IMG/VR virus record: IMGVR_UViG_2579779009_000001
Location: 1 to 36,215 of that record
DNA length: 36,215 nucleotides
Origin: a virus
Taxonomy: Duplodnaviria > Heunggongvirae > Uroviricota > Caudoviricetes
Strand: one strand, 5' to 3'
The position numbers and the translations under genes are program-made. Under the pieces are notes generated by a model, which was not told the origin of the DNA, made no database searches, and saw nothing but the letters and a program-made list of their open reading frames with translations. Shown here one piece after another: positions 1,369 to 30,801 of the stretch (positions are counted from its first letter, which is position 1; each line of letters opens with the position of its first letter).

Positions 1369-1444
1369 GCCGATATAGCTCAGTTGGTAGAGCAGCGCAT
1401 TCGTAATGCGAAGGTCGTAGGTTCGACTCCTATTATCGGCACCA
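1369..1444 (+). tRNA. thrW: tRNA-Thr (anticodon CGU)
   Basis: 76-nt GCCGATATAGCTCAGTTGGTAGAGCAGCGCATTCGTAATGCGAAGGTCGTAGGTTCGACTCCTATTATCGGCACCA with cloverleaf arms, anticodon loop tCGTaa and 3' CCA; proA-thrW synteny. Confidence 0.92.
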
Positions 1445-1458
1445 TTTAAATCAATAAG

Positions 1459-2622
1459 TTACACATCATTAGTACCTTCCTTATTTTTTGACTGGGACAA
1501 ATTTGGGACCGATGGGTTCAGGATCGAGTCTATTTGCCGTGCGTGTTCGGTAAGGTGATTAGGTGCAAGGTGAGCATATCGACGAACCATTTCGATAGAC
1601 TCCCAGCCTCCCATTTCCTGTAACACTGACAACGGGACTCCGGCTTGAACCAGCCAACTTGCCCAGGTGTGTCTCAAGTCGTGAAATCTGAAATCATCAA
1701 TACCAGCCCGTCTCAGCGCCGCTTTCCAGGCTGTGTTTGCGTCATACCGCATCTTCCTTACTGTTGGCGCTTTCGTTCCGTCTGGTTTGGTACAGCTTTC
1801 CTTGTACACAAATACCCAACGGTGATGATTCCCGATTTGTTTTTTCAAAACGCGACATGCAGTATCATTCAGCGCAACGCCGATTGCGCGGTTTGATTTA
1901 CTCTCTTCCGGGTTTATCCATGCCACCCGGCGCTGCATATCTATTTGTTGCCATTCAAGGTTGATGATGTTCGAGCGTCTTAAGCCTGTTGCCAGTGCAA
2001 ATTCAACAACAGACTTTAATGGCTCCGGACATTCATCAATCAGCCTTTGTGCTTCATGGGGCTCCAGCCAGCGGATCCGTTTATTCTTTGGTTGAGGCAC
2101 TTTAATAATTGGTGCCTTATCCAGCATTTTCCATTCACGCTCTGCGGCTCTTAGTAGGGCCTTTATAAATGAAAGATGCGTAGCCTTCGTTGCAACGGAC
2201 GCTGGTTTTGGCGTGTATTCTGGAACAGGTTTCCCTTTTTTTCTGCATGCTTCTGCCCTGAGTTTCCAGTTTTCCTCATGACGCCGGTTCGTCATTTTCT
2301 GCATTGCTGAATAAATTTTTGATTCAGTAATGTCTCTTAGTTGCATTCCTGCGAAATGTTGAAGCCAGAATCCGATCCGGCTTTTGTCATCGTCCAGTGA
2401 TTTTTTATATGCTTTCTCTTCAAGCCACCTGACACACGCTTCCTCGAACGTTATATCAGGTATTTCACCAAGTTTGCTGACCCGCCATGCTTCAGCCTTT
2501 AGCTTGTCATGGAGTTCTGTCGCCTGCCTTTTGTCCTTTGTTCCAAGAGACTGTTTAAATCTTTTACCGTTCGGCAATGTGAAACTGGCGTACCATATTT
2601 CACCTCTGCGGAAGAGTGACAT
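1459..2622 (-). CDS. int: Tyrosine-recombinase integrase, P22-type
   Basis: 387-aa ORF convergent on the tRNA; N-terminus [46 protein letters not shown] and C-terminal [10 protein letters not shown]...VRRYAHL catalytic region are typical of P22-like Int, whose attB is in thrW. Confidence 0.92.
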
Positions 2623-6307: not shown

Positions 6308-6511
6308 TTAACCTCCAGATTTCCGCGCATCTAAAGGCGCATTCTCATTTGGTGTGAACTGAATAGTTGTGCTGATATTGATTAATGCTCCGACACACAA
6401 GACTACGCACTCAGAGCAGATAGCAACTTCATCTTTTCCGCCTTTGGAGATGATTTTTTTTGCCTGCAGCTCGTTTGCGCCACAAAACGAGCATGTGAAA
6501 TAACGGTTCAT
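6308..6511 (-). CDS. Standalone ClpX-type C4 zinc-finger (ZBD-like) mini-protein (~67 aa; alternative start 6529)
   Basis: TCSFCG...KKII...ICSECVVLC aligns with the ClpX N-terminal zinc-binding domain ([31 protein letters not shown]); first gene of the leftward operon after the OL-like operator. Confidence 0.65.
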   Translation of the reverse strand: MNRYFTCSFCGANELQAKKIISKGGKDEVAICSECVVLCVGALINISTTIQFTPNENAPLDARKSGG

Positions 6512-6615
6512 TTGCGCTCTCTTACACATAGTATTTAACGAATCATCCGGTCATTCATACGCCACCGGCGGCTACTTCGTGGGCGTCCTGCCTGTCCGTG
6601 ATAGCTTACATTATG

Positions 6616-6665
6616 TTGCTACTTAAAGTAGCAAAAATCAACAACAAAAAGTAGATATTTGTTGT
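6616..6665. promoter_or_regulatory. OL-like operator region (candidate PL): 19-bp perfect palindrome TTGCTACTTAAAGTAGCAA plus adjacent inverted repeat AACAACAAA...TTTGTTGTT
   Basis: The palindrome half-site CTACTTAAAGTAG recurs twice in the cI-cro intergenic region; lies between the ParA-like gene terminator and the first early-left gene. Confidence 0.6.
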
Positions 6666-6824
6666 TGTCTATGATTTTTCTATAATTAATTGAAAGTTAA
6701 ATGTTTTTGCTGATTTACTATGCTGTAAACTGAAAATATCGCACGAAGTTGGAGTAGGTATTGAGCATAGTGAATTATGAGGAGGGAGTTTTTTATGAGA
6801 TTAATCAGGGAGAAAGAAGAGTAA

Positions 6825-6846
6825 AGCCCGGTTATGCGGCCGGGCA
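6825..6846 (-). terminator. Hairpin terminator downstream of the ParA-like gene
   Basis: GC stem GCCCGG-(ttatgc)-CCGGGC just after the stop at 6853; on the minus strand it is followed by TTTACTCTTCTTTC (U/C-rich, not a pure U-tract). Confidence 0.5.
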
Positions 6847-6852
6847 CATGCA

Positions 6853-7929
6853 TTACTTTGTAAGTTCTAGAACTCGTTGAGCCAGCCCTTTAAATTGTTC
6901 GTTAAAGGCGTCTCTGCTTGATTTCATTGTATTTAAGGCATGCCCAAATTGCCCTGAATCGCGAATTTGCTGATCACTGATGGAGAAAACAGGTGTCGCT
7001 AGTTGTTGGCTTATTGCGATTAATGAGTTGAAATCGGAAATATGCGCAAGATCATAGGCTGATAAATCTCCACTGACTGTTGTTTTGTTAATTGCATGTT
7101 GCACTTTATCTCGTGGAATTATGCAGGTAATTTTTTCTAGATTTGGCACTAAGATCGAATCAACAGCATCACGGATAGCTGCCATCCATTTTTCGAAAGA
7201 TTTTACAGGTGCTCCTTTACGCGGCCTGTATCTCTGCTGAATCATACCTAGAAACTGCGGTGCATTTTTAATTGATTGTGAAGAGTTACCATCATTATTT
7301 TCTTTAAATAATGCTAATTCTTTGTGCCAGCGAGGTATATTTTTTGAGAGAGAGCGAATTGCTTGCCAGCAAAAAAAGTCTGGAGCTACAGGTACGATAA
7401 AATAGTCACTTGACATGAGAACTACTTCATTTAAACCTCCAACATTAGGGCTGAGATCATAAAGAATGTAATCAATATTATTCTTCAAGGCGATTAGCTG
7501 TAATATTTTTGGCAGGTTCCCTGGTATATTTCTTGTAGCAGGAATACCAGCAGCAATTTTTAGAGAAACACTTATCTGTGAATCTAAGTCCGAAACATCT
7601 AAATGTCCGGGAAGAAGCAGAAGGTTTTCATGCAGTGTAGGGTGTAATTTTCCCGTTTCTTTTTCAAGGTATGCTTCAGGTTGTCCGCCATTAATCAAAT
7701 ATTCTACAATAGGTCCAAGAGTTAAGTTATCTCTGCTAGAATAAAAAGAATCTAAACCCTCATCAATCTTTTCATAGCCAAGAACCATTCCTGTTAGATT
7801 ACATTGCGAATCAAGGTCAACCATCAATACTTTCTTGCCTTCATCCGCAAGTGCCCATCCAAGATTGAAGGTTGTTGTGGTTTTACTTACCCCACCTTTA
7901 TGATTAAAAAAACAAATTGATTTTGTCAT
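6853..7929 (-). CDS. ParA/MinD-family P-loop ATPase (358 aa) with extended C-terminal region; lone gene between OL and cI
   Basis: Deviant Walker A at residues 10-17 (NHKGGVSKTTTTFNLGWALADEGKKVLMVDLDSQ), Walker B-like YILYDLSP; AAGGA RBS; AT-rich by eye; same strand as and downstream of cI. No adjacent ParB-like gene. Confidence 0.8.
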   Translation of the reverse strand: MTKSICFFNHKGGVSKTTTTFNLGWALADEGKKVLMVDLDSQCNLTGMVLGYEKIDEGLDSFYSSRDNLTLGPIVEYLINGGQPEAYLEKETGKLHPTLHENLLLLPGHLDVSDLDSQISVSLKIAAGIPATRNIPGNLPKILQLIALKNNIDYILYDLSPNVGGLNEVVLMSSDYFIVPVAPDFFCWQAIRSLSKNIPRWHKELALFKENNDGNSSQSIKNAPQFLGMIQQRYRPRKGAPVKSFEKWMAAIRDAVDSILVPNLEKITCIIPRDKVQHAINKTTVSGDLSAYDLAHISDFNSLIAISQQLATPVFSISDQQIRDSGQFGHALNTMKSSRDAFNEQFKGLAQRVLELTK

Positions 7930-8099
7930 GTTTCTCTATCCTTTCGACCCCCAGCATATTGTAATTTACGCTGGGTAATTATTTTATATTGTTAATGATA
8001 ATGTTTAATAAAAATAAGAGAGTAAAACAACTATTAGTAATAGCACTTGCTTGCTAAATATTATTTTTTTACCTTTAGTTCTATAGTCTAAACGAAGAA

Positions 8100-8804
8100 C
8101 TAAAGCCGGTTGTATTTAATTGATTCGTGTATCAATGCTTTGCCCATAACATAAAGTTGATCTTGGGACTTCTCATCAATGTACCATTTCTCATAGGCTG
8201 GATTATCCGAAAGAACGGCGAGTTTGTTGCCTTGCATTTGTAGACGTTTAACGTGGAACGTCTTACCATAAACGAAAGAGTAAACACCATCAGTTTGGAA
8301 GTTGCGAACAGAAATGTCGACAAACAGTCGATCTCCGGAAACTAGAGTAGGGGACATGCTGTCGCCATTTACAGTCATAACTTTAATATCATCTTGAGAA
8401 CGATTACCGAAAAGAGAACGGGCATGCTCTGTTGTGAACTCAATGGCGTAGAGCACATCAACATAGTCTGAAAGCATATAGGTCCCAGGTCCTGCGCTAA
8501 CGCTAAGATCCAAAACTTCTATCCTGTATACATCGGGTTTTGTTGGATTGGGGATGCTTGCCATTTCCTTACATCCTTCTCTCTCGCCAACACCATATTC
8601 TAAATATGAAGCTGATACCCCCAGAGCCAATGCAAGTTTATTCATGACAGAGGCACGAGGCTTCGCAGCGCCGATTGTGTATCGCCGCGCCATTTCATAT
8701 GTAACGCCCACAAGACTTTTGAGTTGGGTGACAGAAATTCCCTTGTTTGTCATTAGCTCGTTTAGTCTCTTGGCGAAATCTGGATACTTCTGTTCTTCTA
8801 CCAT
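8100..8804 (-). CDS. cI: CI-type prophage repressor (N-terminal HTH + C-terminal S24 LexA-like autopeptidase); start uncertain (8804, 8840 or 8861)
   Basis: HTH region (KRLNELMTNKGISVTQLKSLVGVTYEMARRY), S24-like C-terminus (MTVNGDSMSPTLVSGDRLFVD...KR); divergent from a cro-like gene; the 5' 57 nt of the track ORF contain operator repeats, so the 8804 start (MVEEQ...) is preferred. Confidence 0.85.
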   Translation of the reverse strand: MVEEQKYPDFAKRLNELMTNKGISVTQLKSLVGVTYEMARRYTIGAAKPRASVMNKLALALGVSASYLEYGVGEREGCKEMASIPNPTKPDVYRIEVLDLSVSAGPGTYMLSDYVDVLYAIEFTTEHARSLFGNRSQDDIKVMTVNGDSMSPTLVSGDRLFVDISVRNFQTDGVYSFVYGKTFHVKRLQMQGNKLAVLSDNPAYEKWYIDEKSQDQLYVMGKALIHESIKYNRL

Positions 8805-8842
8805 AGGTAGAAGATTACTCGCATCACATACGCTAGTCATTT

Positions 8843-8878
8843 CTATTTTAAGTAGTTGCATTTTGCTATTTTAAGTAG
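8843..8878. promoter_or_regulatory. OR-like operator repeats (two copies of CTATTTTAAGTAG) in the cI-cro divergent promoter region
   Basis: Direct read: tCTATTTTAAGTAGttgcattttgCTATTTTAAGTAGca; same half-site as the OL palindrome at 6616-6634. Confidence 0.6.
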
Positions 8879-8910
8879 CATCATCCATCTGAATTTCGGA
8901 GGAGAAAGGT

Positions 8911-9174
8911 ATGTCATCTCAAAACTACACAGAGAAAGCAGTAAAAGCTGCGGGAAAATCTTTATCTGAAGTAGCCCGTCACTTTGGTTTTAAGTCCACT
9001 CAATCCGTCGCTAATTGGGTAATTAACAATCAAGTCCCGTCAGAACGGGTTTTACAACTTTGTGAGTTGGGAAACTGGTCCGTGACCCCTCATGAACTGC
9101 GTCCTGATATTTACCCCAATCCAAATGATGGATTACCTGAGTGCTATTCAAAAGTTAGCGGTTCAGCTGCGTAA
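8911..9174 (+). CDS. cro: Cro-like HTH regulator (87 aa)
   Basis: GGAGGAGAAAGG RBS; divergent from cI; HTH-like segment (KSLSEVARHFGFKSTQSVANWV). Confidence 0.7.
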   Translation: MSSQNYTEKAVKAAGKSLSEVARHFGFKSTQSVANWVINNQVPSERVLQLCELGNWSVTPHELRPDIYPNPNDGLPECYSKVSGSAA

Positions 9175-9202
9175 ACGTAACCACAGAAACGAGGAGTTAA
9201 CC

Positions 9203-9754
9203 GTGGGTAAGCATCACTGGAAAATAGAAAAACAGCCTGAGTGGTACGTGAAAGCTGTCAGAAAAACTATCGCGGCGTTGCCGGGTGGTTACGCTGAAGC
9301 GGCTGACTGGCTGGATGTAACAGAGAACGCATTATTTAACCGCCTTCGTGCCGATGGCGATCAGATTTTCCCGCTGGGATGGGCAATGATTTTGCAACGT
9401 GCTGGTGGAACTCACTTCATTGCTGACGCTGTGGCGCAGTCTGCAAATGGCGTCTTTGTGTCTCTTCCTGACGTCGAGGATGTGGACAACGCCGATATTA
9501 ACCAGCGTCTGCTGGAAGTCATTGAACAGATCGGCAGTTATTCAAAACAGATTCGTTCAGCAATCGAAGACGGTGTAGTGGAACCGCATGAGAAGACAGC
9601 AATTAACGACGAGCTGTATCTCTCAATTTCGAAGCTGCAGGAGCATGCAGCACTGGTCTACAAAATCTTTTGCATTTCAGAAAGTAATGACGCCCGCGAG
9701 TGTGCAGCTCCGGGCGCCGTGGCGTGTCGTGACTGTGGAGAAACTAACGCATGA
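9203..9754 (+). CDS. CII-like phage regulatory protein (CP76-type; GTG start)
   Basis: GAGGAG RBS 6 nt before GTG; position immediately after cro; the track's upstream ATG start would overlap cro and is rejected. Confidence 0.6.
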
Positions 9755-10098: not shown

Positions 10099-11040
10099 AT
10101 GAGCACTAAATTAACCGGCTATGTATGGGATGGTTGCGCAGCGTCAGGCATGAAATTATCCAGCGTGGCAATTATGGCCCGCCTGGCTGATTTCAGTAAT
10201 GACGAAGGTGTGTGCTGGCCATCGATTGAAACCATTGCCCGCCAGATTGGCGCGGGGATGAGTACCGTCAGAACGGCTATCGCACGGCTGGAAGCAGAAG
10301 GCTGGTTAACGCGTAAGGCGCGTCGCCAGGGTAACCGCAATGCGTCGAATGTTTATCAGCTTAACGTTGCGAAGCTTCAGGCAGCGGCATTTTCTCAACT
10401 GTCAGATTCTGACCCGTCAAAATCTGACGCATCAAAATCTGACCCGTCAAAATTTGATGCGTCGAAATCTGGCAAAAAAGCGGGTTTTCACCCGTCAGAA
10501 TCTGGCGGGGATCCGTCAGTAAAATCAAAACATGATCCATCAGATAAAAAACCTTCTCGTCCGGACGCTTCGCAACCGGACACGCAGATGGATGAACAGG
10601 ATTTTTTAACTCGCCATCCTGATGCGGTTGTATTCAGCCCTAAAAAGCGCCAGTGGGGAACGCAGGATGATTTGACCTGCGCACAGTGGCTCTGGAAAAA
10701 AATCATCGCCCTGTACGAGCAGGCCGCCGAATGTGACGGCGAGGTGGTTCGTCCCAAAGAACCTAACTGGACAGCCTGGGCAAACGAAATTCGCCTGATG
10801 TGTGTGCAGGATGGTCGTACTCACAAACAAATCTGCGAGATGTACAGCCGCGTCAGCCGCGATCCGTTCTGGTGCCGTAACGTGCTCAGCCCGTCGAAGT
10901 TGCGGGAAAAATGGGATGAGCTTTCCCTGCGCTTATCGCCGTCCGTCAGCACGCACACAGAAAAACGCGAAGACCCGTACTTCAAAGCCAGTTACGACAA
11001 TGTGGACTACAGCCAGATCCCGGCGGGATTCAGGGGGTGA
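10099..11040 (+). CDS. Replication initiator (lambda O-like: N-terminal HTH, iteron-bearing middle, C-terminal domain)
   Basis: N-terminal HTH (ETIARQIGAGMSTVRTAIARLEAEGWL); low-complexity middle encoded by DNA iterons; position after cro/cII. Confidence 0.75.
   Translation: MSTKLTGYVWDGCAASGMKLSSVAIMARLADFSNDEGVCWPSIETIARQIGAGMSTVRTAIARLEAEGWLTRKARRQGNRNASNVYQLNVAKLQAAAFSQLSDSDPSKSDASKSDPSKFDASKSGKKAGFHPSESGGDPSVKSKHDPSDKKPSRPDASQPDTQMDEQDFLTRHPDAVVFSPKKRQWGTQDDLTCAQWLWKKIIALYEQAAECDGEVVRPKEPNWTAWANEIRLMCVQDGRTHKQICEMYSRVSRDPFWCRNVLSPSKLREKWDELSLRLSPSVSTHTEKREDPYFKASYDNVDYSQIPAGFRG
10401..10553. repeat. Iteron array plus adjacent A+T-rich tract (candidate phage origin) inside the replication initiator gene
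   Basis: At least six ~12-15-bp direct repeats of the form (C)CGTCAAAATCTGAC, followed by aaaatcaaaacatgatccatcagataaaaaa; encodes the DPSKSDASKSDPSKFDASKS repeat. Confidence 0.7.
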
Positions 11041-15104: not shown

Positions 15105-15845
15105 CTAAATTACTTGGATGATGAAAGAAACAATCAATGCTGCTAAACCACCAACGGCAGATACTTTGAATTCCGAACCACGAAATGCCATCTTCCCATT
15201 GACCTTTATATTATTTGCAATGAATGGCGAGATTCCAACGGCCGCACTCATGAAATATAAAGAGAAAATCATTTTCTTTTGAAATTCATTCAAATCTGGT
15301 ATTAGCAGCGTAATTGATAAAAAAATACAAAAACATAAAAATCCAATAATGGCAGTGACAATTAATTTCCAATTCATTGGTGTGCCTATAGTAAATCCAT
15401 CGATTGGCAAATTTCGAGACTCAAATTCAGCAATAATAGGTGTGTAAATATCTTTTGATGAATACTTTTTAATGATTCTTTGGAGGTTTGATAGACCATC
15501 TTTGCTATACAGTACAATATTGTTTGGATCAATTTCTAGGCATTTAATGTTTGACACCATCATGTCGTAGTATTCTAAATAAGTTTCCAGAACCGCTCGA
15601 CAGTCTCCAACTAAGGAAATGGCAAATGTCTTATTGTCATCCAGTTTACATAAATCTACTTTTTGAACTAATTTAACAGCGGTATTAAAATATTTTGAAG
15701 CATGCTGCTGAATTTCATGTAGGTCAGCAAGGTTTGATATACCATTACACAAGTATGGCTGAATACCACGTAAAAATCTTTCCTTTGCAGAAATCAGCTC
15801 CGACGTTACTTCGTCGGGGCTGATCTGAAACACATCATTATTCAT
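15105..15845 (-). CDS. Membrane protein of unknown function: ~155-aa N-terminal soluble domain plus three C-terminal TM helices (246 aa)
   Basis: Hydrophobic segments WKLIVTAIIGFLCFCIFLSITLLI, MIFSLYFMSAAVGISPFIA, VSAVGGLAALIVSFIIQVI; start overlaps the upstream gene stop (ATGA); AT-rich; opposite strand to flanking late genes. Confidence 0.7.
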   Translation of the reverse strand: MNNDVFQISPDEVTSELISAKERFLRGIQPYLCNGISNLADLHEIQQHASKYFNTAVKLVQKVDLCKLDDNKTFAISLVGDCRAVLETYLEYYDMMVSNIKCLEIDPNNIVLYSKDGLSNLQRIIKKYSSKDIYTPIIAEFESRNLPIDGFTIGTPMNWKLIVTAIIGFLCFCIFLSITLLIPDLNEFQKKMIFSLYFMSAAVGISPFIANNIKVNGKMAFRGSEFKVSAVGGLAALIVSFIIQVI

Positions 15846-30354: not shown

Positions 30355-30801
30355 TTACTGTGCGAACACGCAATTTCGGCCTGATGGGGAGCCGACAATT
30401 CTGGACATTTTTTCGCAAATAACAGTTACTTGTTCTCCTTTTTTAAGAGCAGCAGCTGTTGATTTTTCAGAGTCTTGCATCTCCATTCTTGCTGGCATGA
30501 ATTCATTTTCAGTTCTGAATTTAATAATTATAGAGTCAGTAAAGTCCTTATCAATGGATTGTACGATACCTCTAACGGCGATTAATTTACCTTTTAACTG
30601 TTCATCGGTAGCGACTTCATTTTCTTCATACTCTTTAAACAGCTGTCGAGCAGTAGTGTTGTAGATTTCTTTTTGCGGTGCCGCAGCTTCCGTATCGGAT
30701 GAGTATGAAGAATTAGAGCCTTTATCGTTATTGCCTGCAAAATATCCAATAATCACCAACCCGATGAAAATATATAAAATCCATTTTAATAATTTCTTCA
30801 T
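30355..30801 (-). CDS. Membrane-anchored protein with possible OB-fold-like soluble domain (148 aa); opposite-strand moron within the tail operon
   Basis: N-terminal anchor (MKKLLKWILYIFIGLVIIGYFAG, no lipobox Cys); AT-rich; AAGGTGA RBS and AT-rich upstream region with TATAAA-like element; OB-fold assignment is tentative. Confidence 0.7.
   Translation of the reverse strand: MKKLLKWILYIFIGLVIIGYFAGNNDKGSNSSYSSDTEAAAPQKEIYNTTARQLFKEYEENEVATDEQLKGKLIAVRGIVQSIDKDFTDSIIIKFRTENEFMPARMEMQDSEKSTAAALKKGEQVTVICEKMSRIVGSPSGRNCVFAQ

Follow-up and report, generated by a model that had tools for sequence, protein, structure and literature searches.

The window analysed here is the whole 36,215-nucleotide stretch of the IMG/VR virus record IMGVR_UViG_2579779009_000001 (Caudoviricetes). 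Since a tRNA-Thr attachment site and a tyrosine integrase are present, the element is an integrated prophage, and near-identical prophages adjoin proA in complete Escherichia coli genomes according to their annotation. The subject of this analysis is a single gene on the minus strand (6853–7929), which follows the repressor gene of this prophage, encodes an unusually long ATPase of the ParA/MinD type and is a candidate for a phage defence gene of the lysogen. The features of the locus are the following:

6853..7929, minus strand: long ParA/MinD-type ATPase gene, 358 amino acids (aa), N-terminus MTKSICFFNHKGGVSKTTT
8100..8861, minus strand: cI-like repressor (HTH_3 and Peptidase_S24 according to Pfam; 'XRE family transcriptional regulator' in the E. 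coli genome annotation)
8911..9174, plus strand: cro-like regulator, divergent from cI (Pfam YdaS_toxin / CI-repressor HTH)
6616-6634, no strand assigned: palindromic OL-type operator TTGCTACTTAAAGTAGCAA, located downstream of the ATPase gene (matches the OR copies as a direct and an inverted repeat)
8840-8855 and 8863-8880, no strand assigned: two OR-type operator copies in the cI-cro interval (repeat match to OL)
7930..8099, minus strand: AT-rich spacer between cI and the ATPase gene, 29% GC (composition, promoter and terminator scan)
6845..6826, minus strand: intrinsic-terminator-like hairpin GCCCGG-loop-CCGGGC followed by the T-rich tail TTTACTCTTC, 7 nt past the stop codon (scan)
6308..6529, minus strand: first gene leftward of OL, which encodes a ClpX-type zinc-finger protein (phrog_5259) and opens the early-left operon
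1369-1444, plus strand: tRNA-Thr(CGT) attachment site (ARAGORN)
1459-2622, minus strand: tyrosine integrase, directly after tRNA-Thr (list of open reading frames, ORFs)

The repressor gene and the ATPase gene have the same orientation and are 170 bp apart. Because the palindrome at 6616-6634 matches the two OR copies, the ATPase gene is placed between cI and OL. The first-pass annotation had described this as the position that rexA-rexB take in phage lambda, and coordinates, strand and operator match bear this out. A chance ORF can be dismissed, because more than 5,000 cluster representatives (90% identity clusters) match the product over its full length. A megablast search with the locus as query gave no match among 50,697 phage records, and the homologues in P22-like and Pf1-like phages were detected by protein-level search only.

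With lambda rexA-rexB the gene shares the position only, i.e. downstream of the repressor, on the same strand and before OL/PL. The Rex system consists of two components, and RexB is a membrane protein; the gene in the window, in contrast, codes for one cytoplasmic ATPase, which has Pfam matches to ParA-type families only, shows no kinship to Rex in sequence or fold and does not qualify as RexA or RexB. Slots next to the repressor often house anti-phage genes in prophages, and exclusion genes which the lysogen expresses are located at this position; remAIN in Gifsy-1 of Salmonella strain 14028s as well as DUF3024/PDC-S43 in P22-like phages are other examples of cargo between cI and OL.

The post-repressor slot is occupied by members of the same protein family in other phages, too. 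A family member was found after a 155-aa CI in Gifsy-like prophages of Salmonella, after an S24 repressor in a lambdoid prophage of Klebsiella and directly after S24 repressors in two Pseudomonas species; in the P22-like phages ST160 and SE1 the order is c2, DUF3024, ParA-like gene and gp24. The phages which share this slot differ in their repressors, replication genes and integrases. The likeness to the rexAB position is real, and four further prophage lineages, whose repressors and replication modules are unrelated, repeat it. Conversely, enterotoxigenic E. coli H10407 has a related prophage in this att site whose slot contains no gene, and the gene occurs in only 109 of the 5,426 complete E. 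coli genomes (all copies at least 99.8% identical). From the H10407 prophage and this low frequency it follows that the gene is optional cargo. The carriers, about 2% of the complete E. coli genomes, include extraintestinal pathogenic (ExPEC) and avian pathogenic (APEC) strains, e.g. IHE3034 and APEC O18.

In ST160, the gene of the DUF3024 protein (PADLOC PDC-S43, E 1.6e-30; L090 4521-4862) separates the ParA-like gene from the repressor gene, and in Morganella psychrotolerans the same protein is encoded immediately upstream of the ParA-like gene (L002 7418-7756). Two candidate defence genes are stacked in the ST160 and the Morganella elements.

The closest functional comparison is offered by GiPD474 (STM474_RS13505) of Salmonella Typhimurium 4/74, a single 361-aa AAA_31/ParA-like gene in the Gifsy-1 immunity region, downstream of the repressor (Bosma, Noireaux & Bowden 2025, PMC12724215). 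GiPD474 is transcribed in the lysogen with more than 500 transcripts per million, confers a roughly 5-log protection against T4 and Alf5 as well as resistance to Felix O1 (FO1), and gives none against T7, SP6 and S16 (PMC12724215). Its sequence was recovered through the published primers. Behind Gifsy repressors which are 94% identical to each other, either GiPD474 or a 73%-identical homologue of the window ATPase was found, and it is at the 3' end of cI that their DNA homology stops. A single ParA-like/AAA_31 gene immediately downstream of the repressor is hence common to both systems, and it is this use of the same slot behind near-identical Gifsy repressors that links the window ATPase functionally to GiPD474.

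In sequence the two proteins are only distantly related. They share 22% identity and are collinear over about 350 residues, and an hhalign comparison of both families gave a probability of 99% (E 2.8e-18, 306 aligned columns). GiPD474 scored 51.6 bits against the hidden Markov model (HMM) of the window family, compared with 51.0 bits for a canonical chromosomal ParA, although the match of GiPD474 spans a far longer stretch; in the opposite direction, two members of the window family scored 46.7-50.4 bits against the HMM of the GiPD474 family. The motifs differ as well (KGGVSKT and DLDSQ in the window ATPase; KGGVGKT and DACPQ in GiPD474, where Cys replaces the second Asp of switch I). Membership of the window ATPase in the GiPD474 family, which its authors define by at least 70% identity and at least 70% coverage (PMC12724215), was rejected on account of the identity of 22%, the cross-scores of about 50 bits and the differing motifs. 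Judged by their sequences, these are separate families of one superfamily, each of which has radiated widely. The GiPD474 family comprises proteins of 345-361 aa, is likewise widespread and retains 55-65% identity across Proteobacteria.

Both families also meet outside of prophages. On the metagenome contig SRR21361704_118 (L098 10001-13015) the genes of a GiPD474-family protein, of a Polbeta-nucleotidyltransferase/HEPN protein and of a window-family ATPase lie side by side. This three-gene islet is located between mnmE and murB, near gidB, and a PIN toxin pair and a canonical parA-parB pair are found 1.7-2.5 kb off (parA-parB at 2.5 kb).

The ATPase gene differs from its surroundings in composition. 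Its GC content is 0.36-0.39 and that of the upstream spacer 0.29, whereas the surrounding DNA ranges from 0.44 to 0.55; these figures, together with the hairpin 7 nt past the stop codon, agree with the first-pass description of an AT-rich gene with AT-rich flanks and its own terminator. The genes of the Salmonella, Klebsiella, phage ST160 and Pectobacterium homologues are likewise followed by a hairpin of the form CCCGGCC..CCGGG with a T-run, and the hairpin of the Lonsdalea homologue has no clear T-run. In the spacer, a conserved ATATAAAATAA element (7974-7989) overlaps weak promoter-like hexamers (8007..7978), and an element of this type is kept upstream of the homologues in Klebsiella, ST160, Lonsdalea and Pectobacterium. 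This region may represent a promoter. The terminator scan of the spacer between cI and the ATPase gene revealed no terminator-like site on the minus strand. The ATPase gene is thus a discrete cassette, whose conserved upstream AT-rich element and conserved terminator move with the gene between phages.

In the window, about 45 extra nt (7930-7975, minus strand) separate the conserved element from the start codon, and they could fold into a CCCAGC..GCTGGG hairpin of the 5' leader. The copies in Klebsiella, Lonsdalea and Pectobacterium lack this insert, and in these copies an ATG with a good Shine-Dalgarno sequence comes right after the element. The annotated N-termini of the homologues therefore differ by 10-16 residues. 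Past the terminator, the prophages of Salmonella and Klebsiella (L082-L086, ~9139-9349, minus strand) contain a conserved ORF of 67-68 aa without Pfam match, which is convergent to the ParA-like gene; no equivalent ORF of at least 40 aa was found on the plus strand of the window at 6530-6850.

Due to its location in the immunity region, beside the operators, the ATPase could also serve the life cycle of the prophage itself, either as an anti-activator similar to Soj or FleN or in the handling of the phage genome at establishment or induction. Soj and FleN are textbook precedents for ParA-type proteins which modulate transcription, a Pf1-like inovirus prophage has a relative at its regulatory end, and older records label homologues as 'regulatory protein' (ST160 record GU573886; Pf1-like Orf317). 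These labels are annotation without experiments, however, and the family occurs with unrelated repressors and operators and even without any phage genes nearby. An otherwise similar prophage does without the gene, and its terminator and conserved upstream element move with it. A role in the regulation of the own prophage is thus considered unlikely.

The Pf1-like protein Orf317 (317 aa; L091 5079-6032, AY324828) is a true relative of the window ATPase, with 31% identity over 99% of the query and an E-value of 1e-37 against the family HMM. It is annotated as a Soj-like 'putative regulatory protein', and its gene stands alone at the regulatory end of a Pseudomonas inovirus prophage, divergent from the structural genes. 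Compared to the window ATPase it is shorter, and it belongs to a filamentous phage. The literature, including the Pf-phage paper, yielded no functional study of Orf317.

Pfam assigned residues 3-204 of the window ATPase to AAA_31 (E 2.4e-29) and additionally detected CbiA. The deviant Walker A motif near the N-terminus, which had already been noticed in the first-pass annotation, reads K11-G-G-V-S-K16-T17, and K11, G12, G13, K16 and T17 are invariant in an alignment of 22 homologues. In the family alignment, D38, D40, Q42 and N44 of switch I (DLDSQCN) and D158 of Walker B (YDLSPN) are invariant as well. K11 is the signature lysine, K16 the catalytic lysine, D38 and D40 are the switch I residues and D158 is the Walker B aspartate. 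Since all catalytic and dimer residues are conserved, the protein probably undergoes the ATP-dependent sandwich dimerisation that is typical of deviant-Walker-A proteins. PDFFC(W/L)QA, QQRYRPR and DFNSLIA are among the invariant motifs specific to this family. The basic QQRYRPR stretch may fall where Soj has its DNA-binding arginine of the R189 type, according to the order of the secondary structure elements only; HMMER alignments to Soj stop short of this region.

The entire chain is predicted to form one ParA/MinD-type fold with insertions. The nearest structure is PDB 3pg5, to which the family profile aligns over residues 3-322 (E 4e-27); this is DIP2308 of Corynebacterium diphtheriae, an uncharacterised structural-genomics entry. 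A Foldseek search against viral structures (BFVD) gave weak, uninformative ParA and kinase matches only. In comparison to a ParA of 255 aa, the approximately 100 additional residues correspond to insertions at about 44-100, 185-218 and 243-290 and to a long C-terminal helix (330-357). The greater length given in the first-pass annotation is therefore correct, whereas the unrecognised C-terminal region that it described is no separate domain, as insertions and helix belong to a single ParA fold.

With canonical ParA, Soj, McdA and MinD proteins the window ATPase has in common the fold, the deviant Walker A motif with the signature lysine, the DxD motif of switch I and the Walker B aspartate. 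It differs from them in its extra residues and in the lack of a partner of the ParB, McdB or MinE type, of a centromere and of a membrane-targeting helix; the likeness in sequence is confined to the P-loop and Walker B segments. A MinD-like membrane-targeting helix was considered and rejected, since residues 330-357 are part of a long packed helix with a hydrophobic moment of at most 0.56 and a mean hydrophobicity of about 0. No hydrophobic segment was detected in the protein, which is soluble by its sequence.

The most obvious explanation of such a protein would be that of a genuine partition ATPase (type Ib ParA) of the element, which acts with an unrecognised adaptor and centromere. PHROG 164, 'ParA-like partition protein', matches over the full length, NCBI uses the same label, and partition ParAs are the closest folds. 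Against this, neither a ParB gene nor a parS array was found beside the gene or elsewhere in the 36-kb window, and no ParB is annotated in the near-identical prophages. A small adaptor gene in operon with the ATPase gene was not detected either; the terminator directly follows the stop codon, and the gene beyond it is already part of the OL-controlled operon. No repeat array lies near the gene, and the sole tandem repeat of the window (10408-10471) is located inside the replication-initiator gene. The element carries an integrase and occupies tRNA-Thr as an integrated prophage, the full-length copies in complete E. coli genomes are all chromosomal, and no downstream gene is conserved in 80 loci of the family. 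The curated partition equivalog NF041546 gave 55.5 bits over residues 5-43 only, compared with a cut-off of 180. NCBIfam models of partition proteins, MinD and BcsQ match the first ~40-75 residues (the partition equivalogs ~40-50, SopA up to ~180) and remain far under their cut-offs, and the same applies to SopA, RepA and PrgP. On contig L098, a genuine parAB pair coexists with a family member. The first-pass annotation had already doubted a partition role for an integrated prophage, and the missing ParB and parS, the integration at tRNA-Thr and the lack of the gene in the related H10407 prophage all agree with this. We consider partition very improbable.

The tandem repeat itself lies in the ORF at 10099-11040 (plus strand), whose product resembles HTH_36 replication initiators. 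A 15-bp unit, TCTGACCCGTCAAAA, is repeated 4.3 times and encodes repeated DPSKSDASKS. Because the array is inside the initiator gene, it probably represents origin iterons; in lambda, the origin iterons are likewise located within the initiator gene O.

The family of the window ATPase comprises proteins of about 345-370 aa from many phyla. An HMM search of 1.84 billion representatives yielded 273 representatives of 50% identity clusters at E ≤ 1e-30. Identities are 60-65% across Gamma-, Beta- and Deltaproteobacteria and 40-45% to members from Firmicutes and Bacteroidota. A scan of one genome per species revealed 244 loci, among them loci from Helicobacter, Akkermansia, Veillonella, cyanobacteria, Planctomycetota, Bacteroidota and Firmicutes with 40-56% identity. 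As these cluster searches and the genome scan show, the family is rare per genome, patchy in its distribution and strongly conserved.

Neighbourhoods were analysed in 80 species-representative loci from many phyla. When all ORFs of these loci were clustered, no recurrent neighbour or operonic partner emerged, and the 121 immediate neighbours fell into 118 Pfam families, many of which are housekeeping families. A phmmer search for repressors and integrases detected only two repressors and one integrase in the 80 loci; outside of enterobacteria and Pseudomonas, a prophage-immunity context is therefore not the rule. Outside of prophages, the gene was found in a Mannheimia island with a RepB primase and ParE and as a lone insertion among housekeeping genes.

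Several ATPases of this type, namely MinD, FlhG/FleN, BcsQ, McdA and MipZ, position or regulate machines of the host, so that the window ATPase might be a lysogenic-conversion factor: an orphan ParA/MinD-type protein which positions or regulates a conserved host machine and would alter the behaviour of the lysogen (division, motility, matrix or nucleoid organisation) instead of blocking phages. The 80 loci offer no indication of this, as no flagellar, cellulose, carboxysome or division genes adjoin the gene, and no min genes lie close to it. The protein also has neither a MinD-like membrane-targeting helix nor a hydrophobic segment, its rare and patchy spread and the cassette structure resemble mobile cargo, and it is co-located with defence genes and with genes of the GiPD474 family. 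A function in host physiology is rather unlikely for these reasons.

First and second neighbours in the 80 loci were also compared with PADLOC (2023 library). Strong matches among the immediate neighbours included GajA (E 7e-198, directly downstream, L053), MzaA (directly upstream, L021), DolB, NsnA, PDC-S21, PDC-S43 (i.e. DUF3024) and PD-T4-2_A. Among the second neighbours, NsnB, AbiLi, AbiK/DRT reverse transcriptases and AriA/Old-type ATPases were detected twice each. Some loci of the family thus adjoin Gabija, Menshen, Mza, AbiL or DRT genes.

About 15 rare relatives have an ATPase part that is closest to the window family (37-39% identity to members). Of the relatives that were scanned, P0304, P0305, P0323 and P0330 carry a C-terminal cysteine protease of the CE clan (Ulp1/RickCE-like), to which the precomputed Pfam list adds two more proteins. 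One relative has N-terminal Schlafen AlbA_2 and HATPase_c_4 domains, and others are tandem duplications. The linkage of an NTPase switch to an effector is a common layout of conflict systems, and since the fusions show this layout, they suggest that the ATPase is a sensor or switch, whose stand-alone form would act by binding alone or via a partner in trans.

P0380, P0252 and P0382 also belong to the relatives with a fusion or duplication. Two fusion genes were viewed in their context, P0304 with the protease domain and P0306, which has no Pfam protease match (loci L099 7001-8914 and L100 7001-8959); both lie alone among housekeeping genes.

An interference with plasmids or other elements has also to be considered. 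By covering the nucleoid or titrating out foreign adaptors of the ParB type, a ParA on its own could destabilise incoming plasmids or plasmid-prophages, with no block of lytic phages. This would fit a ParA fold in which all residues of the ATP cycle are intact, and it would fit the carriage by competing mobile elements (lambdoid and P22-like phages, an inovirus, and the Mannheimia island mentioned above). It is pure inference, though, for which no precedent was found, and the one tested analogue from the same slot, GiPD474, acts on lytic phages. We regard it as improbable.

These observations are best explained if the window ATPase is a stand-alone defence or exclusion protein that is expressed in the lysogen, a reading which we favour with moderate confidence and which is supported by circumstantial evidence and by the proven analogue GiPD474 in the same slot. 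The gene would then be a moron, i.e. an accessory cassette consisting of a probable own promoter, one gene and a terminator, with the immunity region between cI and OL as its insertion site. Transcription in the lysogen most likely begins either at the repressor promoter, with read-through into the gene, or at the gene's own AT-rich promoter. The product would be a stand-alone cytoplasmic long-form ParA-type ATPase, whose putative ATP-sandwich dimer may bind DNA or a target protein and may shield the lysogen from other phages or from mobile elements; GiPD474, its distant relative in the same slot, protects in this manner. Nuclease, toxin or membrane domains are missing, and because of this, protection would be expected to operate by ATP-dependent binding or sequestration, either of incoming or replicating phage DNA or of a phage or host factor. 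Alternatively, the ATPase may activate a partner supplied in trans.

Several points weigh against a defence function. The protein shows no recognisable effector domain, and its conservation is unusually strong for a sensor that co-evolves with phage proteins, which calls for caution. Outside of prophages, most neighbours are housekeeping genes. The accumulation of defence genes next to family members appears to be above chance expectation, but this is a rough and only suggestive impression. GiPD474 is related at the superfamily level only. Literature searches revealed no study of the family or of 3pg5, and the GiPD474 paper was the only pertinent work. Finally, the sole PADLOC match of the ATPase was to PDC-M28B, and it covers only residues 3-40, i.e. 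the P-loop, of a 438-position model (E 5.8e-9), far from full length. This last point says little about a defence role, because the proven GiPD474 has no PADLOC match either.

A more far-reaching interpretation, which we put forward as a tentative and rather doubtful possibility, is that the whole family represents a second, larger and phylum-spanning group of effector-less ParA-type immune ATPases, distinct from GiPD474 and with the E. coli protein as its founding example. The ATP switch itself would then block infection; for instance, it could coat or mis-position the DNA of the invader in an ATP-dependent manner, or capture a conserved factor of phage or host. In the rare relatives the same switch would drive the fused CE-clan protease. 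The ParA/MinD positioning machinery would in this case join the cellular modules which were recruited for immunity, with a mechanism unlike that of nuclease, NADase, pore or abortive-toxin systems.

If the family indeed defends its hosts, single-gene defence of the ParA type would be widespread and not a curiosity of Salmonella and Gifsy, and at least two deeply diverged families would swap in one prophage slot. A large family from many phyla, which is absent from the defence catalogues (only the P-loop is matched in the 2023 PADLOC library), would alter the annotation of thousands of genomes. The mechanism would show how a switch of ATP-dependent dimerisation and DNA binding can stop a virus without an effector domain. 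The natural fusions to CE-clan proteases provide a handle on the possible output. Furthermore, the E. coli carriers, ExPEC and APEC strains included, could affect the host range of therapeutic phages.

Two further positions in the window attract attention as sites of additional genes. The genes of the Q antiterminator and the holin flank an ORF of 246 aa on the opposite strand (15105-15845, minus) without Pfam or PADLOC match, and in strain EC11 the same slot contains an MBL-fold hydrolase gene and two hypothetical genes (L001 28487-30887); this prophage type seems to have a second variable hotspot for cargo between Q and holin. Within the tail module, the reverse strand just past the tape-measure gene codes for a tRNA_anti-like OB-fold protein of 148 aa (30355-30801, minus), and it is likely that this gene is another moron.

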